Assembly: GCA_001779055.1 (NCBI GenBank)
Contig: MFJA01000011.1
Span: forward strand, 23,102-66,480
Source: Candidatus Gottesmanbacteria bacterium RBG_16_37_8
GTDB taxonomy: Bacteria; Patescibacteriota; Microgenomatia; 2-02-FULL-39-11
Reading direction: 5' to 3'
Length of the DNA: 43,379 nucleotides
Part shown: positions 17,001 to 43,379 of the stretch, piece after piece
How positions within the stretch are numbered: the stretch's first letter is position 1
How the letters are laid out: each line of letters starts with the position of its first letter
Made by a program: the position numbers and the translations under genes
Notes under the pieces: model-generated
The model's input: the letters and a program-made list of their open reading frames with translations, nothing else
The model's database searches: none
Told to the model about the DNA's origin: nothing

Positions 17001-17867
17001 TTACAGTTCTTCCAGTTTTATGCTGTCGCTTGTTTTCTCTTTTATAAGGTCCAAATATTTTTCTGTTGTTGACAGTCTTTTATGTCCAACCAGTCTGCTT
17101 ATTACAGTCAGAGGGGTTCCCGCTGAAAGATGATGGGCAATAAATGTATGTCTCAAATCGTTAACTTTGGCATTTTCAATTCCGGCGATTCTGAAATAGC
17201 GGTCAATGGTTGTCCTGATATTCCTGACCAGAAGCGGTTTTCCTGTTTTAGTAACAAATAAAGCATTGTTAGTCGATTTTGGTTTTATAGCCAGCCATCT
17301 GTCAAGTGCCTCCCGGGCTGCCTTATTTAAAGGTACGCTTCTTTGAGGATGACTCTCCTGTGCTTCAATTATTAGTTCTTTATCTTTGACATTCTCCACT
17401 TTTATATTGGAAAGTTCACCAATGCGTATTCCTGTTTGAAGAAAAAGTTCCACAATAGAATAGGTTCTTACATCCCCCCGGCAGGCATCTCTTAATGCTC
17501 TGTATTCCATTTTTGACAAAATTCTTGGCGGTTTCACCGTGTATTTGGGATGGGTAATATCAGCTGCCGGATTGCTTGTTACTATATTATTATTCTTTAA
17601 AAAGCGGTAGAAAGTCTTTATTGAGTTGATTTTCCTCGAAAGAGATTTGAGGGTATAGCCGTCAGAAGTAAGTTTCTTTAAGAATGCATCCAGATCGTCT
17701 TTTTCGATGCTGTTTAGGTTTTTTTTACCCATATCGGACAAAAAAGCCATCAATTGCTCAATATCTTTGCTGTAGGCAACTATTGTTGCCGAGGCTCGGT
17801 GTGCCTCTTGCAGGTATGCTATAAACTGTTGCTGGGGACCTTTAAGCTGTTCATTGCCTAAATTCAT
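17001..17867 (-). CDS. tyrosine recombinase, XerC/XerD-like
   Basis: SAM-like N-terminal domain. C-terminal catalytic pattern ...GIRIGEL...LRHTFIAHHLSAGTPLTVISRLVGHKRLSTTEKY. The track start at 17909 is a TTG. The ATG at 17867 sits 7 nt downstream of a consensus promoter and is preferred. Confidence 0.85.
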   Translation of the reverse strand: MNLGNEQLKGPQQQFIAYLQEAHRASATIVAYSKDIEQLMAFLSDMGKKNLNSIEKDDLDAFLKKLTSDGYTLKSLSRKINSIKTFYRFLKNNNIVTSNPAADITHPKYTVKPPRILSKMEYRALRDACRGDVRTYSIVELFLQTGIRIGELSNIKVENVKDKELIIEAQESHPQRSVPLNKAAREALDRWLAIKPKSTNNALFVTKTGKPLLVRNIRTTIDRYFRIAGIENAKVNDLRHTFIAHHLSAGTPLTVISRLVGHKRLSTTEKYLDLIKEKTSDSIKLEEL

Positions 17868-17874
17868 AGGGCCT

Positions 17875-17903
17875 ATAATACAATTAAACAGGTTTCTTGT
17901 CAA
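17875..17903 (-). promoter_or_regulatory. near-consensus promoter of the recombinase gene (leaderless)
   Basis: The minus strand reads TTGACA(17903..17898)-17 nt-TATTAT(17880..17875)-7 nt-ATG(17867). Confidence 0.45.
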
Positions 17904-18003
17904 ATTCAATCACTTTGTTGTAGAATAAATAACCTCATCATGTTCGGCCTATATGTAAAGCGTCAAAATATCAATGTAGATTTATATATTCTCTCGGCCT
18001 AAC

Positions 18004-18753: not shown

Positions 18754-19200
18754 ATGAGGTGCCCTTTTTGTGACCATCAGGATACCGAAGTTGTAGAAAC
18801 CAGGGACAGCGAAGACCTGGCTACGATAAGAAGAAGACGGGAATGCACTAAATGTACCAAACGTTTTACAACATATGAACGGGTAGAACGCATACCTTTG
18901 ATTGTTATCAAAAAAGACGGCCGTAAAGAGCAATTTGATCGGGATAAGTTAAAACACGGTATTTTGAAATCATGCGAGAAAACAATTGTCGGCATTGAGG
19001 ATATAGAGTCAATTGTTGAGGAAGTTGATAAGGAATTAAGAAGCTTGGATACAATTGAGGTAGATAGTAAAAAAATCGGTCAATTGGTTGCCCAGAAGCT
19101 TAAGAAAATCGATAAAATAGCCTATATCCGTTTTGCCAGCGTGTTCCGACGTTTTGTTGATCTTGAAGATTTTGAGAAAGAATTACAAAAGCTGCTTTAA
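18754..19200 (+). CDS. nrdR: transcriptional repressor NrdR (zinc ribbon plus ATP-cone)
   Basis: MRCPFCDHQDTEVVETRDSED...RRRRECTKCTKRFTTYERVE followed by an ATP-cone. Confidence 0.95.
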   Translation: MRCPFCDHQDTEVVETRDSEDLATIRRRRECTKCTKRFTTYERVERIPLIVIKKDGRKEQFDRDKLKHGILKSCEKTIVGIEDIESIVEEVDKELRSLDTIEVDSKKIGQLVAQKLKKIDKIAYIRFASVFRRFVDLEDFEKELQKLL

Positions 19201-19231
19201 AAAGGTTTATTAATAGAAGGGTGAAATATAA

Positions 19232-21571
19232 ATGAAATTAACAGGTATCAGACAGCAGGTTTTTTTGGATCGCTATTCATTGAAAAACGATAAAGGTCAG
19301 CCTGTTGAGAGTACTCCTGACAAGATGTGGGTAAGAGTAGCTAAAGGAATTGCTTCTGTTGAAAAAAAGGAAAGTAAAAACTTCTGGGAGAAAAAGTTTT
19401 ATCAGGTGATGGAAGATTTTAAGTTTGTCCCCGGAGGAAGAATACTATCCGGCGCAGGTTCCGGCTACAAAGTCACTTTCTATAATTGCTTTGTCATTCC
19501 CTCCCCCAAAGATTCCCGCGACGGCATTCTGGAAACATTAAAACAGATGGTGGAAATAATGGCCAGAGGCGGAGGAGTCGGTATTAATCTGTCATCATTA
19601 AGGCCCCGAGGGGCTAGGGTTAAAAAAGTTAACGGTTTTTCATCAGGGCCCTGCAACTGGGCGGAACTTTTTTCAGTTGCCACCAAAGATATTATCCAGC
19701 AGGGCGGTACAAGAAGGGGAGCTTTAATGCTCATGCTTTGGGATTGGCATCCTGATATTGAAGAATTTATTACCGTCAAAAGGGATTTAACGAGAATTAA
19801 TGGCGCTAATTTATCAGTCTGTGTTTCTGATAAATTTATGGAAGCAGTCAAAAAAGATGATGATTGGCAGCTTGTTTTCCCCGATATCTCCGACCGGGAG
19901 TATGACGGCAAATGGGATGGCTACTTGGATGATTGGGTTAAGTCAGGTAAAAAAGTTAAGGTCTATAAAACAGTTAAAGCCAGAAAGATCTGGGATTTGA
20001 TCAGTCAAGCTGCCTGGGCGTCAGCTGAACCGGGTGTTGTCTTCATGGAGAGATACAATAAATGGAATAATAATTGGTACTTCAATAAAATCAACTGCGT
20101 CAATCCGTGCGGAGAGGAAGGGCTGCCTGCTTATGGTGTATGTAATCTTTGTTCCATTAATTTGGCAGCTTTGGTTAAAAACGGTCATATAGATCTTAAA
20201 GAGCTGTCCCGTATTGCTAAAATCGGCGTCCGTTTTCAGGACAATGTCATAGATGCCGATTCTTATGTTTTTCCTCAAATAGAGAAAGTTCAAAAGCATG
20301 GTGAGCGCCGTATTGGTCTTGGCACCATGGGTCTGGGGGATGCTTTTATCAAAATGAAAATCCGCTATGGTTCAGATCAATCTTTAAAAGTTATCGATAA
20401 AATTTACCAAACAATAAGAGACGCAGCTTATGAGACTTCAGCTGAAATTGCCAAAGAAAAGGGAGCTTTTCCCAAATTTGATGCTGATAAATATCTCAAG
20501 GGTTACTTTGTCAGTCAGCTCCCGAAATCCGTTAAAGATAAAATCCGCAAATGGGGAATCAGAAACTCTGTTCTTCTTCAGCAGGCTCCCACAGGCTCCA
20601 CCTCGCTTTTATCCGGTGTTACCTCAGGTATTGAACCTGTTTATGAATTTTCCTTTATAAGACGCGACCGTTTAGGTGAACACCGTCTTTATCATCCTCT
20701 TTATGATGAATGGAAAAAGAAAAATCCAGATAAACCGGTGCCTGATTACTTTGTTTCCGCCAATGATTTGAATCCTGAAGATCATGTTCGGGTTCAGGCA
20801 GCTATTCAAAAATATGTTGATGCCTCAATATCCAAAACAGTCAATGCACCTAATACTCATACAGTTGCTGATGTTCAAAAGCTGTACCGTTTGGCTTACG
20901 AACTTGGTTGTAAAGGTATAACTTACATGCGCGACGGAAGCCGTCCCGGAGTTCTGGAAAGAATTGATCAGAAGAAGGAAGAAGCCAAAGCTGCCGTAGA
21001 TGAACTGACTAATGGTAACGGTAAAAAAACTCCTGAAATCACCCCCCGGCCTATGGTGGTTAAAGGTGCAACTTACCAGATTGATACTCCCGTTGGTGCA
21101 GCTTTTATCACCATTAATACGGATATTGCCAATGAACCGCTTGAATTATTTATTAATGTCGGTAAAGCCGGATCAGACGTTACCGCTATGGCTGAGGCAG
21201 TCGGCCGTTTAGCTTCACTTGTTTTGAGAATGCAATCGAGCGTCCCGGCTTCTGAAAGATCAAAACAGATCTTTAATCAACTTATTGGTATCGGCGGCAG
21301 TAAATCGCTCGGATTTGGAGAGAAAAAAGTCCGTTCATTGCCTGATGCCGTTGCTAAAATATTAGCCATGCATTTCGGCTATAAAGTTAAAAACGGCAAT
21401 GGTATTACCAAAGATGAAAAACTGCTTGATAAACCGGTTGCTGTTCTCACCCAAGAAGTTCTGCCGGTTGAAAAATCGGAATATGATTTATGTCCTTCTT
21501 GCGGAGAAGCAGCTCTGGCTTACGAGGAAGGCTGCAAGAAATGTTACAGCTGCGGCTACTCAGAATGCTGA
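19232..21571 (+). CDS. nrdJ: adenosylcobalamin-dependent ribonucleotide reductase (class II)
   Basis: 779 aa. Motifs NCFV, GGGVGINLSSLRPRG, NPCGEE and QQAPTGSTS. C-terminal CPSCG...CKKCYSCGYSEC zinc finger. GAAGGGTGA RBS upstream. Confidence 0.9.
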   Translation: MKLTGIRQQVFLDRYSLKNDKGQPVESTPDKMWVRVAKGIASVEKKESKNFWEKKFYQVMEDFKFVPGGRILSGAGSGYKVTFYNCFVIPSPKDSRDGILETLKQMVEIMARGGGVGINLSSLRPRGARVKKVNGFSSGPCNWAELFSVATKDIIQQGGTRRGALMLMLWDWHPDIEEFITVKRDLTRINGANLSVCVSDKFMEAVKKDDDWQLVFPDISDREYDGKWDGYLDDWVKSGKKVKVYKTVKARKIWDLISQAAWASAEPGVVFMERYNKWNNNWYFNKINCVNPCGEEGLPAYGVCNLCSINLAALVKNGHIDLKELSRIAKIGVRFQDNVIDADSYVFPQIEKVQKHGERRIGLGTMGLGDAFIKMKIRYGSDQSLKVIDKIYQTIRDAAYETSAEIAKEKGAFPKFDADKYLKGYFVSQLPKSVKDKIRKWGIRNSVLLQQAPTGSTSLLSGVTSGIEPVYEFSFIRRDRLGEHRLYHPLYDEWKKKNPDKPVPDYFVSANDLNPEDHVRVQAAIQKYVDASISKTVNAPNTHTVADVQKLYRLAYELGCKGITYMRDGSRPGVLERIDQKKEEAKAAVDELTNGNGKKTPEITPRPMVVKGATYQIDTPVGAAFITINTDIANEPLELFINVGKAGSDVTAMAEAVGRLASLVLRMQSSVPASERSKQIFNQLIGIGGSKSLGFGEKKVRSLPDAVAKILAMHFGYKVKNGNGITKDEKLLDKPVAVLTQEVLPVEKSEYDLCPSCGEAALAYEEGCKKCYSCGYSEC

Positions 21572-21621
21572 GCGTCAGCGAAGTCCCGATGAATATCGGG
21601 ATTGAACGGGTACAATGAACG

Positions 21622-22164
21622 ATGGTCAAAATCTACACCAGAACCGGTGATCAGGGAAAAACTTCCCTTTATGGAGGCAAGAGGGTCCTCAAATCACATC
21701 CGCGCGTCAATGCCTATGGTACGGTTGATGAATTAAATTCGCATTTGGGTTTGTTATTAGCCGCGCTTTCTAAAGAAAAAGAAATTATAAATTTCTTAAC
21801 TTCAATTCAATCCGATCTTTTCGTCATTGGCAGCCATTTATCAGGCGATAAAATACCTCTCCATTTATTAAGTAAAAGGATCAGACAAATGGAAAATTTG
21901 ATTGACCGTCTGGATAAAAACCTGCCGCCTTTAAAAAATTTTATCCTCCCTCTCGGATCTCCGGAGGCATCCTTAGCTCATATTGTCAGAACTGTCTGCC
22001 GAAGGAGTGAAAGACAAGTTATAGCTTTAATATCCGATGAAAAAAGTATCGACTTAGAGATTGTTGCCTATCTAAACCGTCTTTCTGATTTAATGTTTAT
22101 TATTGCCCGTTACCTCAATTCCCGTCGCGGGATAAAAGACGTTATTTGGAAAAAATTACTCTGA
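21622..22164 (+). CDS. PduO-type ATP:cob(I)alamin adenosyltransferase
   Basis: Begins MVKIYTRTGDQGKTSLYGG and carries ...RTVCRRSER... 180 aa. Confidence 0.88.
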   Translation: MVKIYTRTGDQGKTSLYGGKRVLKSHPRVNAYGTVDELNSHLGLLLAALSKEKEIINFLTSIQSDLFVIGSHLSGDKIPLHLLSKRIRQMENLIDRLDKNLPPLKNFILPLGSPEASLAHIVRTVCRRSERQVIALISDEKSIDLEIVAYLNRLSDLMFIIARYLNSRRGIKDVIWKKLL

Positions 22165-22233
22165 CATTCCCCTTGTCATTAAAGCCCAATATATGACAAA
22201 ATAGATGTGTTATAAAAATTCATTTGAATTTCT

Positions 22234-22701
22234 ATGAAAAGATTAAATTATAAGAGAAAAAGTAATCCGGTTTTAATCATCCTCTTTATTTTATTAGCTG
22301 TTATTTTGGTCATGCAGTTTACTGTCTTTAAGGGCAATAAATTTAATCTTGCCCCTGATAAAACTGATCAACGCCAGAGCCAAAATAACCAAAATCAGGC
22401 TATTCAGATGGAGGAAAATACTGTTACTGTCGATTTTGGTGATGGAAGGAAAATTGAAAAAAATGTTAAAGCAGAAACACCATTCCGGGCTTTGCAAATG
22501 GTTTCCGACAGCGAAGGTTTTGCAGTTTTAACAAAAGAGTATAAATACGGTTTGATTGTTGAAGAAATTAACAATGTTAAAAATAATTCGGGAAAATATT
22601 GGCTTTATTCAGTCAATAATCAGCCGGGTAAAATTGCCGCTGATCGTTATCAGTTAAATGCAGGTGATGTCGTTAAATGGGAATATACTAGTGCCAAATA
22701 A
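22234..22701 (+). CDS. membrane-anchored DUF4430-like protein (transcobalamin beta-domain-like fold), putative corrinoid binder
   Basis: N-terminal TM segment. C-terminal pattern VTVDFGDG...ETPFRALQMV...YGLIVEEINNVKNNSGKYWLYSVNNQPGKIAADRYQLNAGDVVKWEY is typical of DUF4430. Confidence 0.6.
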   Translation: MKRLNYKRKSNPVLIILFILLAVILVMQFTVFKGNKFNLAPDKTDQRQSQNNQNQAIQMEENTVTVDFGDGRKIEKNVKAETPFRALQMVSDSEGFAVLTKEYKYGLIVEEINNVKNNSGKYWLYSVNNQPGKIAADRYQLNAGDVVKWEYTSAK

Positions 22702-23314
22702 AATTGATAAAAAAAATCATCTGCCCATTTTTAATAATACCCCTTCTTTCAGGGTTTTTTTTGCCGTACTTTTGATTATTCTGGCAGTTTTAGGAAGAAC
22801 AATTTTTCATTTGGGTGAAAATATCGAGTTTGTAACTGCTGCCTCGCTTTTAGCAGGCAGTTTCCTTGGTTTATTTTGGTCAATAACAGTTCCGCTGGTT
22901 TCTATGGCCATTAGCGATCTGATAATCGGCAATACCCTGATTTTCCTTTTCACCTGGAGTGCTTATTTAATAATAGGTATTCTTGGTTTTATATTTTTAC
23001 GCTCCTCGAAAGGAATTGTTTCACAGACTATTAAAGCAACCTTTACCGGAGTTCTTGCCTCTTTTGTCTTTTTTCTTTGGACTAATTTTGGCGTCTGGTT
23101 GCTTGACAGTTTCGGTATGTATTCTGATGGTTTGTCCGGACTCATAGAGTCTTATATTTTCGGCCTGCCTTTTTTAAAGATGAATCTGTTGGGAAATTTA
23201 TTTTTAGTACCCCTCTCCTTTATTCTTTTTCACCTGTTTCTCATTTTTTATCCGTCAATCTTTAAGTCTGCATCAAAGACTGAAAGAAGTTATATTAAAA
23301 AAGGAAGTTATTAA
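22658..23314 (+). CDS. DUF6580-like polytopic membrane protein, putative vitamin (B12) uptake component
   Basis: Motifs ...NIEFVTAASLLAGSFLG... and ...FFLWTNFGVWLLD...GLSGLIESYIFGLPFLKMNLLGNLFLVP. An in-frame GTG at 22691 is an alternative start and would cut the overlap with the upstream gene to 11 nt. Confidence 0.5.
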   Translation: MQVMSLNGNILVPNKIDKKNHLPIFNNTPSFRVFFAVLLIILAVLGRTIFHLGENIEFVTAASLLAGSFLGLFWSITVPLVSMAISDLIIGNTLIFLFTWSAYLIIGILGFIFLRSSKGIVSQTIKATFTGVLASFVFFLWTNFGVWLLDSFGMYSDGLSGLIESYIFGLPFLKMNLLGNLFLVPLSFILFHLFLIFYPSIFKSASKTERSYIKKGSY

Positions 23315-23319
23315 TAATC

Positions 23320-23784
23320 ATGCCTGCCCAATCAGCAAATACCACATCTTCTGCCGATCCCAAGTTTCCAACATCGACTCCTTCCTCCCAACCCGCCAAT
23401 GCTCCTGCTCAGGCTTCTGTTTCAATCCATGGCAAGGAAGCAGAAAGCACCCCTGTTATTAAAGGAGAAATTTCAGCATCAGAATCCCAGGAATTTGAAA
23501 TTCCCAAAGAAGTGGCCAGTGTTGGTGTCCGGGAAATTAAAGGAACAATAGAACTCCCCCCGGATGTAAAAAGGTTGGGTGTTGCGCCGTCAGGCTCTCA
23601 GACACCGGTAGTTTCTCTCCCCACAGTCTCTCTGCCGTTAACTGATGATAAAATTCTTCAGGGGGTCAATGCTCCGCTTACTTCCGCTTTTAAATGGCTG
23701 GCAGTTTGGTGCATTAAAAAACTTCAAAAAGCTCATCTTGTCCTGAAAAACATACATGGTAAAATCATTCGGGTTAAAAATTAA
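23320..23784 (+). CDS. hypothetical protein with a P/S/A-rich N-terminus and a basic amphipathic C-terminus
   Basis: 154 aa. Low-complexity N-terminal third and C-terminal ...SAFKWLAVWCIKKLQKAHLVLKNIHGKIIRVKN. It ends 15 nt upstream of the ATPase gene. Confidence 0.5.
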   Translation: MPAQSANTTSSADPKFPTSTPSSQPANAPAQASVSIHGKEAESTPVIKGEISASESQEFEIPKEVASVGVREIKGTIELPPDVKRLGVAPSGSQTPVVSLPTVSLPLTDDKILQGVNAPLTSAFKWLAVWCIKKLQKAHLVLKNIHGKIIRVKN

Positions 23785-23799
23785 ATCATAATTCTAATT

Positions 23800-26145
23800 A
23801 TGGATGAAGGAACTTTCGAAATAGTCAATCTGTTGATTGATTTTGGAATAACTTTATTTATCCTGGTTCTATTCCTGGCCGGAATTGCCCTCTTTCTTTA
23901 TTTCTTCTTTTTATGGTGGAAATATAGAAATCGCGAAAAGCAAAGTTTGGAATTTGTTCTTCTGCAGGTTTCCGTTTCTAAAGATAATGAAGTCAAAATT
24001 GATGCTGCCGAGCAGTTTTTTACTGCTCTTTCTTCTCTTTCTCACGGAGGTTTTTTATCATTTTTAAAGCCTCAGGACTATATTGCTTTTGAGATTGTCG
24101 GTCGTCCAGGCGATATCCGCTTCTATGTTTCCGTTCATCATCACCTAAGGGATCTTATTGAAAAACAGATCTATGGAATGTATCCTGCCGCTGAAATCAG
24201 GGAAATTGATGAATATAATATTTTTAATGCTGTTGGTAAAGTTGCTTTTACTTCTTTTATTCTTAAAGATGCTGATTATCTGCCCATAAAAACCTACCGC
24301 GATCTGCCTATCGATTCTTTATCGGCCATTACCTCAACATTGGCTAAAATGCAGGATGGTGAAGGTGCCGTTATCCAAGTTCTGGTTACCCCCTCAGACG
24401 GCAAATGGAAAACAGCCGGTAAATCCCACATCTCCAATATAAAGAAAAATGAAGCTAATCCCGAAAAAGCGAAGTATAATGTTGATGCTAAATCTCTGGA
24501 AACAATTGAAAATAAGCTGACTAAACCTGGTTTTTTTACCACCATCCGTGTAGTTGTTACTTCATCAACAACAGAGTCGGCTAAAATGCATCTTCATAAT
24601 ATTGAATCAGTTTTTTCCCAATTTTCCTCGGACAAAAATCATTTTGGTTCAACAAAACAGCTGATAAAAAGTTCCTTTATGTTTGATTTTATCTACCGTT
24701 ATTTCCCTGTTAGTAATTGGCCGTATAAACAATATAGTGTTTTAACCAGTGAGGAGTTGGCAACAGTCTTTCACTTTCCCAATAAAAGTGTGGAAACACC
24801 CCATATTGACTGGGTGACTTCCAAAAAAGCTCCTGCTCCGGCGGATATTCCTACCACCGGTCTATATCTTGGTAAAAGTGCCTACCGGGGCATCTCCCGT
24901 CCGATACATATGCAGTTGGATGACAGAAGGCGTCATATCTATATTGTCGGCAAAACTGGTGTCGGCAAATCGGTACTTTTAAAAGATATGATTCTTCAGG
25001 ATATTAAATCCGGCCAAGGTGTTGCTGCTATCGATCCCCATGGAGATCTAATTGAAGGAATTTTACCCCTCATTCCTCCCGAAAGAGCCGAAGACGTTAT
25101 CTATTTTGATCCCTCTGATATAGAGCGTCCCATGGGATTAAATATGCTGGAAGCCTATACAGAAGAACAGAAACATTTCATTTGTACCTCAATTATCGGA
25201 CTGATGTATAAACTTTATGATCCGCAAAAAACAGGTATCATCGGCCCGAGGTTTGAGCATGCCATCAGAAATGCCATGTTAACCGTCATGGTCGAGCCAG
25301 GTGCATCTTTTGTCGAGGTGGTCAGAGTTTTGACCGATTCAGCCTTTGTCCAGGAGCTTCTTCCCAAGGTTACTGACCCGATCATCAGGCGTTATTGGAC
25401 CGACCAGATTGCTCAAACTTCCGATTTTCATAAATCCGAAGTTCTGGATTATATAGTTTCCAAATTCGGCCGTTTCGTCACCAACAAATTAATGCGTAAT
25501 ATTATCGGCCAATCCAAAAGCGCTTTTGACTTCAGAAAAATCATGGATGAAGGTAAAATACTTCTGGTAAATCTGGCCAAAGGCAAACTCGGTGAAGAAA
25601 ATTCATCATTTTTAGGCTTAATTCTTGTTCCCAAAATTCTGATTGCCGCCATGAGCCGTGTGGATACTCCCGAAGATGCCCGTCGTGACTTCTTTCTCTA
25701 TGTTGACGAGTTTCAGAATTTCGCTACTCCCGATTTTGCCCAGATATTATCAGAAGCAAGAAAATTCCGTCTCAACTTATGTGTTGCCAACCAGTTTATC
25801 GGCCAGATGGAAGAGGAAGTCAAAAATGCCGTGTTCGGCAATGTCGGTACCATCATTTCCTTCAGGATTGGCGTCACTGATGCTAATTATCTTCAGCACT
25901 GGTATACTTCGGTTTTTAACGAAAGCGATCTTATTAATGTCGATGTCTATAATGCCTATGTCACAACTATAATCGGCAATAAACCGGCTACTCCTTTTTC
26001 TGTTGACATGAGAAAAGACATAAGCGAGTTGAAAAAAATGGAGAATAAAGAAGTTGCCAAGGCAATTGTCCAATTATCCCGCCTCAAATACGGCCGTCCC
26101 CGCGAACTGGTCGAAGCCGAGATCTCCCGGCGTGCCAAGTTATAA
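23800..26145 (+). CDS. membrane-anchored VirD4/TraG/TraD-like (T4SS coupling-protein-like) P-loop ATPase
   Basis: N-terminal TM segment (ITLFILVLFLAGIALFLYFFFLWW), then about 300 aa of unknown domain. Walker A is YIVGKTGVGKS and the Walker B-like motif is FFLYVDEFQNF. SEARKFRLNLCVANQ resembles the TraG/TraD C-terminal module. Confidence 0.7.
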   Translation: MDEGTFEIVNLLIDFGITLFILVLFLAGIALFLYFFFLWWKYRNREKQSLEFVLLQVSVSKDNEVKIDAAEQFFTALSSLSHGGFLSFLKPQDYIAFEIVGRPGDIRFYVSVHHHLRDLIEKQIYGMYPAAEIREIDEYNIFNAVGKVAFTSFILKDADYLPIKTYRDLPIDSLSAITSTLAKMQDGEGAVIQVLVTPSDGKWKTAGKSHISNIKKNEANPEKAKYNVDAKSLETIENKLTKPGFFTTIRVVVTSSTTESAKMHLHNIESVFSQFSSDKNHFGSTKQLIKSSFMFDFIYRYFPVSNWPYKQYSVLTSEELATVFHFPNKSVETPHIDWVTSKKAPAPADIPTTGLYLGKSAYRGISRPIHMQLDDRRRHIYIVGKTGVGKSVLLKDMILQDIKSGQGVAAIDPHGDLIEGILPLIPPERAEDVIYFDPSDIERPMGLNMLEAYTEEQKHFICTSIIGLMYKLYDPQKTGIIGPRFEHAIRNAMLTVMVEPGASFVEVVRVLTDSAFVQELLPKVTDPIIRRYWTDQIAQTSDFHKSEVLDYIVSKFGRFVTNKLMRNIIGQSKSAFDFRKIMDEGKILLVNLAKGKLGEENSSFLGLILVPKILIAAMSRVDTPEDARRDFFLYVDEFQNFATPDFAQILSEARKFRLNLCVANQFIGQMEEEVKNAVFGNVGTIISFRIGVTDANYLQHWYTSVFNESDLINVDVYNAYVTTIIGNKPATPFSVDMRKDISELKKMENKEVAKAIVQLSRLKYGRPRELVEAEISRRAKL

Positions 26146-26171
26146 TAAAAATTTGCTATAATCCCTTTGAC

Positions 26172-35706: not shown

Positions 35707-36033
35707 TTATAACCCCGCTCCTTTTAATCCGAAAAGGTAGGCTACCAATTGCACAATCCAATACGAGGTAAAAATTATAAAAAAACCGATTATTGCCTGA
35801 GTAATTTTTGTTTTCCCCATCTCCGTCTTTTTCGGGTCTCCCATCGAAGTCAGAAAATCAAATCCTCCCCAGATAAGATAAAGAAGAAGAGCAATGCCGG
35901 CCAAAGCCAATATCAGGGGAACAGCATTATTAACCAAAGACGCCAGATTAGTGAATTTTCCGGGTGGTAATGGTCCGCTTATTTTCCCTGTAACTCCGGG
36001 AATTATAAGTCCCTGTACTAATAAATAATCCAT
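35707..36033 (-). CDS. TrbC/VirB2-like small two-TM 'pilin' protein
   Basis: 108 aa. ...PLILALAGIALLLYLIWGGFDFLTSMGDPKKTEMGKTKITQAIIGFFIIFTSYWIVQLVAYL... It is a paralog of 1..301. Its stop abuts the guaA stop with no gap. Confidence 0.65.
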   Translation of the reverse strand: MDYLLVQGLIIPGVTGKISGPLPPGKFTNLASLVNNAVPLILALAGIALLLYLIWGGFDFLTSMGDPKKTEMGKTKITQAIIGFFIIFTSYWIVQLVAYLFGLKGAGL

Positions 36034-36047
36034 ATTTACCTTTATTA

Positions 36048-37481
36048 TTAATCAAATTCTGGTAAATCCAAAATATCAACGGCAATTATTCTCAAAAGAA
36101 AAATTGAAAAAATAATCAGCATCAGTCCTAACAAGGACGAAACGATAATTTCCTTGCCCATAGCTACCCTTTCCGGATTACCTCTTGATGTTAAGAAAAT
36201 AAACGCCCCGTATAGGAAGTACAGAAAGGCAATCGCCCCGGCAAATCCCAACCCTATCCCGAATAATTGGTCTTTAATAATGCTTCCCAGATCCGTTGAC
36301 AGACACCCGATAGCTGTCCATATTTTTGCTTTTTCTCCTTTACCCATGCAGTCCCAACATTTTCCTCTCAAATTATCCTCAGTTGTTAATTGATCACATA
36401 ATGGTGCCAGTGACTGATAAGGCGGAATTGACGGTTCCTCCGGTTGACAGAATGGGCATTTCTGTTTGCATATTGGAAAGTCACAACCGTTAACATCCGT
36501 ACATGGACTTGTCTTGCATTCAGCAGGAAGTGGCGGTTGACAGCAGACGAGCGTTCCTAAACAGAATTCATCACCCGGCGGAACCGGATCCGTACAGGAA
36601 TCATAGCGTTTGCATGAATTTGGAGAATTACATATATATGTACCTTTTTCCACTACTTCAAATGTTTTGGAGGCAAATATTGTATTCCCGAAACCATATT
36701 GAAGTTCAATAAGATGTGTACCCAAAGGTAATGGTTTTAAAACAAACCAAATATCCGATTTATCTGGACTAGTCATAGTACCGGGATCTTTTATAACAGG
36801 AGGACGAGGAAATCCACCGAGATTTTCATGGTCAAGTTTCGTTACATATACGGGTATATTTGCCTTATCGGCAAATGTGACAGTTATTTTCCATTCCGAA
36901 TCAAGATCATGTTTAAAATTTAAAGATTGGGCTTGGATATCAACATGAATATTACTTACCATGCTGTAATTTCCTTCACACAGGTTAAACTTGTCATTAT
37001 TAGAATCCCATGTCTGTAAATACAATTTAAAATCTCCTTCAGCCGAACGCCATCCAGCTGGTACAAAACCGCAATCATTAAACATCGGTCTTTCGTCAAT
37101 AATTTGGTCAGTCGTATTTTTTGGAGCTTGAGGGCGATTTCTGCAAATAGTATATCCAGCTTTAGGTGCCCAGGGAAAAGTTTGCAGGTTTTTTTCCAGG
37201 ATATCAGGAATTCCCTTATCCAGATCATAGAAGGTATATTTATTCCAGAATGATGTGGGAATTTTACTCAAATCAAATATAAATTTGACACTGTTTGTTC
37301 CCTGAGCAATTTTGTTTGTACTCTGATCCAGCATACAGTTCACCGGATCGATACATTGGACTTTAAAACCGCAGTCTGCATCAATAAAAGGAGCTTCTTG
37401 AGCTTTAACTTTTTCGTAAGGACGAAAAAGCAGAAATAGCGGAAGAAATATCAGAACGATAATAATTTTCAATATTTTCAT
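36048..37481 (-). CDS. secreted cysteine-rich protein with a C-terminal VirB2-like pilin module
   Basis: 477 aa. Signal peptide, then about 390 aa of ectodomain whose last third is packed with Cys (CNSPNSCKRYDSCTD...LVCCQPP...CKTSPCTDVNGCDFPICKQKCPFCQ). The C-terminus CWDC...WTAIGCLSTD...GAIAFLYFLYGAFIFLTSRGNPERVAMGKEIIVSSLLGLMLIIFSIFLLRIIAVDILDLPEF aligns with 37485..37967. Confidence 0.65.
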   Translation of the reverse strand: MKILKIIIVLIFLPLFLLFRPYEKVKAQEAPFIDADCGFKVQCIDPVNCMLDQSTNKIAQGTNSVKFIFDLSKIPTSFWNKYTFYDLDKGIPDILEKNLQTFPWAPKAGYTICRNRPQAPKNTTDQIIDERPMFNDCGFVPAGWRSAEGDFKLYLQTWDSNNDKFNLCEGNYSMVSNIHVDIQAQSLNFKHDLDSEWKITVTFADKANIPVYVTKLDHENLGGFPRPPVIKDPGTMTSPDKSDIWFVLKPLPLGTHLIELQYGFGNTIFASKTFEVVEKGTYICNSPNSCKRYDSCTDPVPPGDEFCLGTLVCCQPPLPAECKTSPCTDVNGCDFPICKQKCPFCQPEEPSIPPYQSLAPLCDQLTTEDNLRGKCWDCMGKGEKAKIWTAIGCLSTDLGSIIKDQLFGIGLGFAGAIAFLYFLYGAFIFLTSRGNPERVAMGKEIIVSSLLGLMLIIFSIFLLRIIAVDILDLPEFD

Positions 37482-37484
37482 TTT

Positions 37485-37967
37485 TTATCCGAATCCGGGA
37501 ATCTTTAGAATATCAAAGCCGATAACCCGCAGTAAAAATACCGAGAAAACAATAATCAGGATCCCCAAAATTGATGAGGTGATCATATCTTTTCCTGCCT
37601 GGATCTTTTCCGGATTGCCTGATGATGTCAGAACCGTCGCGCTTCCCCAAAGTACCGCCATAAAAGCAATTCCTCCGGCTGCTCCGAAAACAATGGTTAG
37701 TATCGACTGGACGAATTTTTCAGGCTTGGTAGAAAAACAGCCTAATACCGTATAGTAATTGCCTTTAAGTTCATTACCGCTTGAATCATAAAGGCATTGC
37801 CGGCAGGAGGTCCAGTCAGGGGGCTTGGGATTGATTGTCCGATTGCACCAGCCGCATAAATCACAGGTCGGTATTCCGGTTGGCGTCACTGCGGCAAAAA
37901 CAGGAGGATGAAAAAACCGGAATAATACAAATGTTAAGAATAAAAGAGGCAATAAAAGCCTGGGCAT
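37485..37967 (-). CDS. secreted Cys-containing protein with a C-terminal VirB2-like pilin module
   Basis: 160 aa. Signal peptide, CDLCGWC...CRQC...YTVLGCFSTKPE...GGIAFMAVLWGSATVLTSSGNPEKIQAGKDMITSSILGILIIVFSVFLLRVIGFDILKIPGF. Confidence 0.65.
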   Translation of the reverse strand: MPRLLLPLLFLTFVLFRFFHPPVFAAVTPTGIPTCDLCGWCNRTINPKPPDWTSCRQCLYDSSGNELKGNYYTVLGCFSTKPEKFVQSILTIVFGAAGGIAFMAVLWGSATVLTSSGNPEKIQAGKDMITSSILGILIIVFSVFLLRVIGFDILKIPGFG

Positions 37968-42872: not shown

Positions 42873-43290
42873 GGGGATGAGACGATCGACGGGATAGTAC
42901 TTTAAAAACTGCAAGCCGAGGTGATTGTACTCGCAAAATCAATCAAAACAAAACTGTCAGTAATGATGGTGAAAAAGAAGATATTTTAGCTTTAGCTGAC
43001 CGAGTCCTCGGAAAGCTTGAAGCACGAAATGCTTCTTTAGCTTACGCTGCAAATTATTTGCAGGTCTAAGCTCATCTGTATTTGTCTTTTTCTGATGGGA
43101 TGATGCAGGTGTAAACACAGTCAGAATGCACCCCGGTAATTGACAGACATCGGGGTAAAGACTTTGTCTTACTTTTTTTATTGATTGTCCGTTGGGACAA
43201 TAAGAAAAGGACATTATAACAACGGACTACGCTTGTAGAAGTTTTTATAGTGCGTCTTCGGACTCCGGATCACCTCCGGACATCTCCACC
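42873..43290 (+). ncRNA. ssrA: tmRNA (SsrA)
   Basis: The 5' end GGGGATGAGACGATCGACGGGAT pairs with the 3' end CATCTCC-A-CC, including the G3:U wobble. T-arm TCCGG-ATCACCT-CCGGA. PK1 was hand-folded: CGAG/CTCG plus TGATTG/CAATCA at 42917..42945. It lies 5 nt after smpB. The tag ORF is not resolved. Confidence 0.85.
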
Positions 43291-43379
43291 CAGCAAAATC
43301 ACTCAAAACCCGCTTTATGGCGGGTTTTTCGTGATCGCTGGGCAAGCCCTGAATAACATGAAATAGATTTTGCTGGGTG
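43287..43379. repeat. 14-bp perfect inverted repeat bracketing the ssrA terminator
   Basis: CACCCAGCAAAATC (43287..43300, overlapping the tmRNA 3' end) and GATTTTGCTGGGTG (43366..43379, at the window edge). Confidence 0.8.
43306..43329 (+). terminator. rho-independent terminator after ssrA
   Basis: AAACCCGC-TTTATG-GCGGGTTT followed by a T-run. Confidence 0.7.

Follow-up and report, generated by a model that had tools for sequence, protein, structure and literature searches.

A DUF8128 coupling-protein-like ATPase and its small upstream partner in Candidatus Gottesmanbacteria, one copy of a module found throughout Patescibacteria

Patescibacteria, also called the Candidate Phyla Radiation (CPR), make up a substantial part of bacterial diversity and live attached to host cells. 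These bacteria carry a type IV secretion system (T4SS) without relaxase that is essential in the one species tested, Southlakia epibionticum (Wang et al. 2023, PMC10633639). Here, a pair of genes from a Candidatus Gottesmanbacteria genome (Patescibacteria, class Microgenomatia) is described, located in a stretch of 43,379 nucleotides (contig C11, positions 23102-66480, of an 85%-complete assembly of 1.31 Mb), which is referred to as the window. The pair consists of an open reading frame (ORF) for a small partner protein of 154 amino acids and, 15 nucleotides further, an ORF for a 781-amino-acid membrane-anchored ATPase, in which a DUF8128 domain is combined with an ATPase domain resembling the VirD4/TrwB-type coupling proteins of T4SSs. 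In Gottesmanbacteria, the pair represents a module that is passed on vertically and is found throughout Patescibacteria. The family and its orphan placement have already been published (Quinonero-Coronel et al. 2025, PMC12102498), and the window holds one more copy of this catalogued family. The predicted VirB4-like fold of the N-terminal domain, the positionally conserved partner, the division into type-1 and type-2 paralogs and the scoring of the putative type-1 counterpart in Southlakia as essential go beyond the literature that was searched. This Saccharibacterial counterpart and its partner, which appear essential, offer a genetically tractable handle on what this machine moves.

The gene pair and the architecture of the ATPase

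Both genes are real and conserved and are no chance ORFs, since the ATPase has more than 7,700 relatives in the databases and the partner has 51, with a conserved C-terminal part of 90 amino acids. An earlier note on this stretch had described a 781-amino-acid protein with one transmembrane (TM) segment, a P-loop ATPase and the motifs listed in Table 1, preceded by a low-complexity protein of 154 amino acids with a basic tail. The ORF calls, the motif positions and the N-terminal helix in the AlphaFold2 (AF2) model agree with this description, as does the composition of the partner.

Table 1. Positions of the gene pair, its domains and related features. Coordinates are those of the window unless another contig is given.
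Feature	Position	Strand	Basis
Small partner ORF, 154 aa	23320-23784	+	ORF call
Conserved C-terminal part of partner	23503-23784	+	Alignment, invariant residues concentrated here
DUF8128 + VirD4/TrwB-type coupling-protein-like ATPase ORF, 781 aa, type 1 paralog	23800-26145	+	ORF call
N-terminal membrane helix, residues 3-41 (hydrophobic core 11-40), then KYRNREK	23806-23922	+	AF2 secondary structure, hydropathy
DUF8128 (PF26449) domain, residues 44-346, alpha/beta	23929-24837	+	Relatives' Pfam matches, AF2, Foldseek
P-loop ATPase domain of coupling-protein type, residues 347-740	24838-26019	+	Pfam, NCBIfam, PDB, Foldseek
Walker A GKTGVGKS, residues 384-391	24949-24972	+	Sequence
All-alpha insert in ATPase domain, residues 455-569	25162-25506	+	AF2
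Walker B LYVDEFQNF, residues 633-641	25696-25722	+	Sequence
ARKFRLNLCVANQ motif, residues 653-665 of ATPase	within 23800-26145	+	Sequence
C-terminal helical tail, residues 741-781	26020-26142	+	AF2, helices 741-780
Xer-like tyrosine recombinase	17001-17909	-	
T4SS_pilin (VirB2-like) genes	35707-37967		
tmRNA gene	42873-43291	+	Rfam RF00023, 109.9 bits
T4SS core cluster beside dnaA/dnaN (L016)	contig C76, 2748-8520		Genome search
Second paralog, 727 aa, type 2 (L015)	contig C41, 2048-4231		Genome search

The catalytic residues of the ATPase are invariant across 71 family sequences, and a single TM segment is predicted by hydropathy in 61 of these 71 members. According to the positive-inside rule, applied to the KYRNREK stretch after the helix, the protein would have an N-out/C-in topology and the remainder would be cytoplasmic. 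In the full-length AF2 model, made from the 71-sequence alignment (predicted local distance difference test (pLDDT) 90.9, predicted template modelling score (pTM) 0.80), a single long helix at the N-terminus is followed by an alpha/beta domain (residues 52-323) and then by an ATPase domain with an all-alpha insert.

Judged by sequence and predicted structure, the C-terminal half is an ATPase of the VirD4/TrwB coupling-protein type. The Pfam family TrwB_AAD_bind (PF10412) matches with 25.7 bits against a cut-off of 20.5, aligned over only 49 residues; DUF87 matches as well and TraG-D_C falls just under its cut-off. In NCBIfam, SXT_TraD (E 3.9e-14) and other TraD/VirD4-like models are found, all far below their trusted scores. 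Close relatives and the second paralog of this genome match PF10412, PF02534 and PF12696 more strongly than the window ATPase. Sequence searches of the PDB, both with the single protein and with a profile of the 71 sequences, rank TrwB and DotL first, and the predicted ATPase structure aligns to TrwB in Foldseek with an E-value of 1e-12, a target-normalised TM-score (TMt) of about 0.6 and a root-mean-square deviation of about 5 Å. The canonical type IV coupling proteins (T4CPs), such as TrwB of R388, VirD4, TraD of F, PcfC of pCF10, DotL and Cag-beta, match this half best in both sequence and structure, and they likewise consist of a membrane-anchored P-loop nucleotide-binding domain (NBD) with an all-alpha insert.

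The earlier note had reckoned with the ATPase grouping with the FtsK/HerA families. The T4CPs are instead its best sequence matches, and no FtsK chain is listed in the PDB sequence searches. HerA appears there only weakly (E 0.03) and is found in Foldseek as a general ATPase fold match. The FtsK_SpoIIIE family of Pfam gives an E-value of 0.016, which is below the cut-off, and the FtsK gamma domain is not found. A genuine, complete FtsK with alpha, motor and gamma domains is encoded separately on contig C59. VirB4 signatures are limited to AAA_10 with an E-value of 0.083, and P-loop_TraG does not match.

Between the membrane helix and the ATPase lie about 300 amino acids that have no match in the Pfam and NCBIfam libraries used, in a Pfam copy without the PF26449 model. 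This domain could not be assigned in the earlier note. It can now be placed by proxy, as relatives at 68-90% identity, including those at 83-90%, all carry PF26449 (DUF8128). A search with residues 1-350 against 1.84 billion cluster representatives returned 2,175 relatives, and no paper in the searched literature mentions DUF8128. The AF2 model of the domain alone reaches a pLDDT of 93.8 and a pTM of 0.92. The Foldseek comparison proposed in the earlier note did reveal a likeness, in that TrwK/VirB4 chains make up all of the top 14 PDB matches (E 1.2e-8 to 1.2e-4, probability 1.0, query-normalised TM-score (TMq) 0.43-0.54). HerA is not among these 14, and unrelated folds only appear from an E-value of 8e-4 onward. 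For the full-length model, TrwK/VirB4 of R388 also ranks first (E 1.5e-15, about 890 aligned columns), followed by HerA and then TrwB. Sequence homology between DUF8128 and the VirB4 N-terminal domain was rejected, since a profile comparison with patescibacterial VirB4 N-domains gave no similarity (E 0.13), and the likeness is one of fold only. DUF8128 is therefore predicted to be a fold like that of the VirB4 N-terminal domain, set on a motor of the coupling-protein type.

VirB4 proteins (TrwK of R388, PrgJ, TraC) share the two-domain layout, in which an alpha/beta domain at the N-terminus precedes an ATPase at the C-terminus. The window protein differs from them in that its N-domain has no sequence similarity to theirs and its ATPase lacks the VirB4 signatures, and the genome has a canonical VirB4 with a PrgI neighbour. 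The TM helix fused ahead of a VirB4-type N-domain presumably recalls the VirB3-VirB4 fusions. A likeness in fold is also found in proteins of Bacillus phages, in the BFVD database, with Slash (U5Q0H6), phage G (gp156 and gp155; G3MBM2 and G3MBM1) and JL (S5MSQ0) at E-values from 4e-20 to 1e-9. The Slash protein, gp156 of phage G and the JL protein have the same N-domain fold with E-values of 4e-20 to 1e-18 and a TMq of 0.72-0.76; the best match has an E-value of 4e-20 and a TMq of 0.76.

The partner has no TM segment and no match in Pfam or NCBIfam, and 42% of its residues are P, S, T, A or Q. This composition is concentrated in its low-complexity N-terminal half, and the C-terminal half is conserved, with VGV...ELPPDV..LGV repeats, an LPLTD..I..G motif and a basic amphipathic helix containing Trp and Cys (KWLAVWCIKKLQKAHLVLKNIHGKIIRV), which forms the basic tail. 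In Gottesmanbacteria, the partner is kept directly upstream of the ATPase, and the invariant residues cluster in its C-terminal 90 amino acids. A hidden Markov model built from the window partner finds the same family at 18 Microgenomatia loci. All 51 database relatives are annotated as hypothetical, and the partner evolves faster than the ATPase.

A partner at this position is common outside the Gottesmanbacteria as well. Using a same-strand ORF of 95-320 amino acids that ends between -28 and +130 nucleotides from the ATPase start as the criterion, 54 of the 78 related loci examined, which come from many CPR classes, have a small partner ahead of the ATPase. Together with the partner from the window, 53 of 55 lack a TM segment, and the majority are of low complexity with a basic tail. 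No Pfam family was found in these proteins, and they split into class-specific families without detectable mutual similarity. A common origin of the partner families A-D was considered and not supported by hhalign, for which the best result was A against D with an E-value of 0.0014 over 24 columns, and the families are treated as positional analogues. PcfC of pCF10 is likewise preceded by a small gene, pcfB, and the window partner is unrelated to PcfB/DUF3801. A relationship to this family was rejected for the other partners too, since DUF3801 is matched by one of the 55 with an E-value of 0.017 and hhalign of the four families against PcfB gave nothing. Judged from its position and its conservation together with the ATPase, the partner may bind or regulate the motor.

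Distribution, paralogs and the remaining T4SS genes

The layout is not special to this genome and is general in the phylum, as has already been published (PMC12102498), and in the present sample a near-full-length match to the family profile is found in 301 of 301 genomes (253/253 of high quality, 248/248 genera). Genomes usually hold two or three DUF8128 ATPases, and the Gottesmanbacterial relatives of the window ATPase are 68-90% identical to it. A VirB4 of the type found in this genome is present in 99 of 101 genomes, and the two families therefore co-occur almost everywhere. The orphan VirD4-like T4CPs described for Patescibacteria (PMC12102498) belong to the same family, namely proteins with Pfam DUF8128 (PF26449) and TrwB_AAD_bind; they are chromosomal, lie far from virB4, occur without relaxase and number about two per genome. 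Nothing essential differs in the window copy.

Beyond the phylum, relatives of the ATPase half occur on 558 plasmids from Actinomycetota, Bacillus, haloarchaea and others, of which 410 are predicted to be non-mobilizable, and in 55 phage records, nearly all from phages of Bacillus and related Bacillota. For one such relative on a Rhodococcus plasmid (738 amino acids, annotated DUF87), the N-domain has no profile match to DUF8128.

The earlier note had also suggested an orphan motor without a conjugation system. This holds for the surroundings of the gene, where no conjugation genes are adjacent and, apart from the pilin genes, no T4SS gene or relaxase was found among the window ORFs scanned, but not for the genome. 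The window ATPase gene is an orphan locally only, because the same genome holds a VirB4/PrgI cluster, seven pilin matches and a second paralog. The cluster, which adjoins dnaA and dnaN on the minus strand of contig C76, contains an enlarged PrgI-family protein of 460 amino acids, a 225-amino-acid protein, a VirB4-like ATPase of 672 amino acids (P-loop_TraG 3.6e-28, AAA_10) with the PrgI-family gene two genes away, and a 555-amino-acid protein. The genome search proposed in the earlier note has thus located VirB4, but no TrbL/VirB6 Pfam match was obtained in the genome; the 555-amino-acid protein could be an undetected VirB6 analogue. The seven T4SS_pilin matches, which represent at least five ORFs, are all on contig C11 and flank the window region, lying downstream of the ATPase and just upstream of the window. 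The nearest are 9.6 kb downstream of the ATPase, in line with the distance of about 10 kb given in the earlier note. Relaxase (PF03432) and Rep_trans (PF02486), the only relaxase families searched, have no match in the genome, which is 85% complete.

This composition is in agreement with what is known of the phylum. The T4SS of Patescibacteria derives from the MPF-FATA class, its virB4 is often near dnaA and its VirB2-like pilins occur in arrays, while relaxases are nearly absent and VirB6 is hard to detect in Microgenomatia (PMC12102498).

The second paralog, on the minus strand of contig C41, is 36% identical, lacks both a TM helix and an upstream partner, and adjoins rpsB and tsf. In the phylogenetic tree, it falls into a type-2 clade with a support of 98/100, together with Saccharibacterial proteins encoded behind a gene for a 349-amino-acid protein with Sigma70_r4 and HARE-HTH domains (in Saccharibacteria, such preceding genes are found at L169:4048-5097 and L073:7993-9033). 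The window type and the Saccharibacterial proteins that are preceded by a small partner lie outside this clade. A candidate third paralog type, from Berkelbacteria and one Saccharibacterium (L073 4917-7289, L068), forms a clade of its own (100/100), which fits the three copies seen in many genomes.

These types can be related to published transposon insertion sequencing data from Southlakia, in which genes were called essential (ES), growth defect (GD) or non-essential (NE). SEML1_0142, a protein of 1019 amino acids with a TraM recognition domain, was called ES/ES/ES, with 114 insertions in the input DNA and 11/11/9 at T0/T1/T2 (Table S1, PMC10633639). SEML1_0141, a hypothetical protein of 139 amino acids whose gene ends 12 nucleotides upstream of SEML1_0142, was called GD/ES/ES, with 9 insertions in the input DNA and 0/0/0 thereafter, a zero-insertion pattern that resembles the VirB4 and PrgI genes of Southlakia (PMC10633639). 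For SEML1_0293, with 921 amino acids and a T4SS DNA-binding domain, the calls were NE/NE/NE with 82 insertions in the input DNA and 87/120/110 thereafter, and for the upstream SEML1_0294, a 349-amino-acid 'RpoS', they were ES/ES/ES with 24 and 1/1/2 (PMC10633639). The T4CP homologue of Southlakia has been called dispensable (PMC12102498), a remark that fits the type-2 gene SEML1_0293 only. The window gene would correspond to the essential type, SEML1_0142, because of the shared architecture and the tree position of the Saccharibacterial loci with that architecture.

Possible roles of the module

We put about even weight on the view, the best supported of those considered, that the 781-amino-acid protein acts as the motor that feeds substrate into the dispersed CPR T4SS, docking on the PrgI/VirB4 platform with the partner as adaptor or regulator. 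By means of its single helix, the motor would form a ring at the membrane, and it would dock on the VirB3(PrgI)/VirB4 platform through its VirB4-like N-domain. The small partner may act as a lineage-specific adaptor or regulator, and ATP hydrolysis would serve to pass a substrate, either protein or nucleic acid, on to the channel. The host system would be the dispersed, relaxase-less T4SS of the phylum, derived from MPF-FATA and represented here by the VirB4/PrgI cluster on contig C76 and the pilins on contig C11. In favour of this view are the T4CP-type matches of the ATPase and the VirB4-like N-domain, the VirB4/PrgI cluster and pilin genes of this genome, the near-universal co-occurrence with VirB4, the published census of orphan T4CPs, the essential calls for SEML1_0142 and SEML1_0141 and the positionally conserved partner. 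The 'repurposing' of a coupling protein, which the earlier note also suggested, is a hypothesis of the literature itself.

Several observations weigh against a role as T4SS motor. In canonical T4CPs, two TM helices lead directly into the NBD and a VirB4-like domain is absent, whereas the window protein has one TM helix followed by a folded cytoplasmic domain of 300 amino acids between anchor and NBD, and unlike theirs, its gene is not encoded with T4SS genes or with a relaxase of the two searched families. Profile comparisons with single reference sequences place TraD and the VirB4s at about the same remote distance from the ATPase, with weak results for both. A deep tree of the ATPase domain with TraD, TraC, Tn916 Orf16, FtsK and the genome's own VirB4 was uninformative because of long branches, and several references were dropped from it by the Walker A filter. 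A VirB4, PrgI or pilin gene is found within 5 kb of the ATPase in none of 80 related loci; in the published survey, only 148 of 5,713 VirD4-like T4CPs from 2,918 Patescibacteria genomes were near virB4 (PMC12102498). Two genomes (G058, G021) keep three DUF8128 ATPases each without a VirB4 detectable by protein search or by Pfam P-loop_TraG, and marker genes put the completeness of one of them at 100%. The same two-domain architecture is present in Bacillus phages, for example in gp156 of phage G, of which the ATPase half matches the window protein too; the phage proteins differ by an identity of about 20% or less and by their viral context without T4SS. No substrate, relaxase or oriT is known for the motor, and the two relaxase families are absent from the 85%-complete genome. 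The orthology with SEML1_0142 is based on architecture and on a tree of other Saccharibacteria, with the Southlakia sequence outside the tree.

A serious but less likely alternative is that the ATPase and its partner form a self-contained, membrane-anchored pump for nucleic acid or nucleoprotein that is independent of the T4SS, with the likeness to T4CPs reflecting ancestry only. Such a translocase might import or export DNA or RNA at the contact site with the host, or it might serve housekeeping DNA handling. The separation from T4SS genes in all 80 loci and the presence in all 301 sampled genomes are in favour of this explanation, as is the persistence of the family in the two genomes without detected VirB4, but VirB4 is itself nearly universal (99/101), so the phyletic pattern cannot show independence, and both of these genomes still carry many T4SS pilins (14 and 7 matches in G058 and G021). 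The architecture shared with Bacillus phages and the ATPase-domain relatives on 410 non-mobilizable plasmids also point to a function independent of the T4SS, although a VirB4-like N-domain is known mainly for docking and assembly in T4SSs. In Saccharibacteria, the type-2 paralog sits behind the essential Sigma70_r4/HARE-HTH DNA-binding protein, which is a further point in its favour; against it, DNA uptake and segregation are already covered by ComEC-type competence (PMC10633639) and the genuine FtsK. The synteny with core genes, with 12 loci next to the ribonucleotide reductase (RNR) and 19 next to a Xer-type recombinase, would fit as well, but it is confined to Microgenomatia and Dojkabacteria and looks like inherited gene order.

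A more tentative proposal, which we consider rather doubtful, goes one step further. The type-1 ATPase and its fast-evolving partner may be an essential, phylum-wide machine of their own, a surviving intermediate between VirB4 and VirD4 and no accessory of the T4SS, which moves nucleic acid or protein at the host interface and also runs the pilins where VirB4 is lacking.

It is improbable that the genome has in this protein another assembly ATPase of VirB4-like kind, acting on the VirB2-like pilins, for instance in their extraction from the membrane and in pilus growth, beside VirB4 or replacing it. The earlier note had raised a link with the pilins. The fold comparisons, in which the top 14 matches of the N-domain are only VirB4 and VirB4 is also the best alignment for the full-length model, are the main argument in its favour, but the ATPase domain has T4CP signatures and next to none of VirB4 (AAA_10 only at E 0.083, no P-loop_TraG). 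The pilin arrays share the contig with the window gene but are separated from it by 9.6 kb that hold unrelated metabolism genes. The two genomes with pilins and DUF8128 ATPases in which VirB4 was not detected would suit a replacement, yet they are two draft assemblies only, and a canonical VirB4 with a PrgI neighbour is present in this genome and a VirB4 in 99 of 101.

Gene order around the pair and other features of the window

The pair closes a compact string of genes on the same strand: nrdR, class II RNR, PduO-type adenosyltransferase, DUF4430, DUF6580, partner and ATPase. The strongest promoter-like site on the plus strand precedes nrdR, no convincing terminator was found by a scan within the string from nrdR to the ATPase, and the genes are probably co-transcribed, as judged from the sequence. 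No Shine-Dalgarno sequence is present at the ATPase start codon (23785-23802); a CATAAT hexamer precedes the ATG and ends 7 nucleotides from it, and a leaderless or internal start is possible. Control of the string by a cobalamin riboswitch or another RNA element was considered and rejected, as the RNA scan of the window yields a tRNA and a tmRNA only.

The order class II RNR, PduO, (DUF4430, DUF6580), partner and ATPase, which occupies 18754-26145 in the window, is kept in 12 Microgenomatia loci (L019-L023, L028, L034, L035, L037, L039, L045 and L046). In 19 Microgenomatia and Dojkabacteria loci, a convergent Xer-like recombinase lies just downstream of the ATPase (e.g., L020:8484-9386 and L025:7497-8333). 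The window differs in that its Xer homologue lies upstream, 6 kb before the gene pair, and the ATPase is followed by tRNA-Ile(UAU), beginning 26 nucleotides beyond the stop codon with its own TGCTATAAT box directly after this codon (26146-26171), and by small inserted cassettes stacked behind the tRNA. This RNR/Xer neighbourhood appears to be a conserved core gene order and no mobile element. A remnant of a conjugative or mobilisable element integrated at tRNA-Ile, which the stacked cassettes behind a tRNA 26 nucleotides from the ATPase and the tyrosine recombinase 6 kb upstream (directly downstream in relatives) might suggest, is very improbable and effectively refuted by the conservation data, with the family in 301 of 301 genomes, 68-90% identity across Gottesmanbacteria, conserved synteny with RNR and other core genes, a guanine-plus-cytosine content of the pair equal to that of its surroundings, a recombinase that is Xer-like and no match to Relaxase PF03432 or Rep_trans PF02486.

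Many of the contigs compared (among L021-L100) are clearly patescibacterial but carry public titles such as 'uncultured Gammaproteobacteria', 'Bathyarchaeia', 'Limisphaerales', 'Methylomirabilota' and 'Sulfotelmatobacter', and these look like mislabelled metagenome-assembled genomes. The window also includes a tmRNA gene near its downstream end (Table 1).

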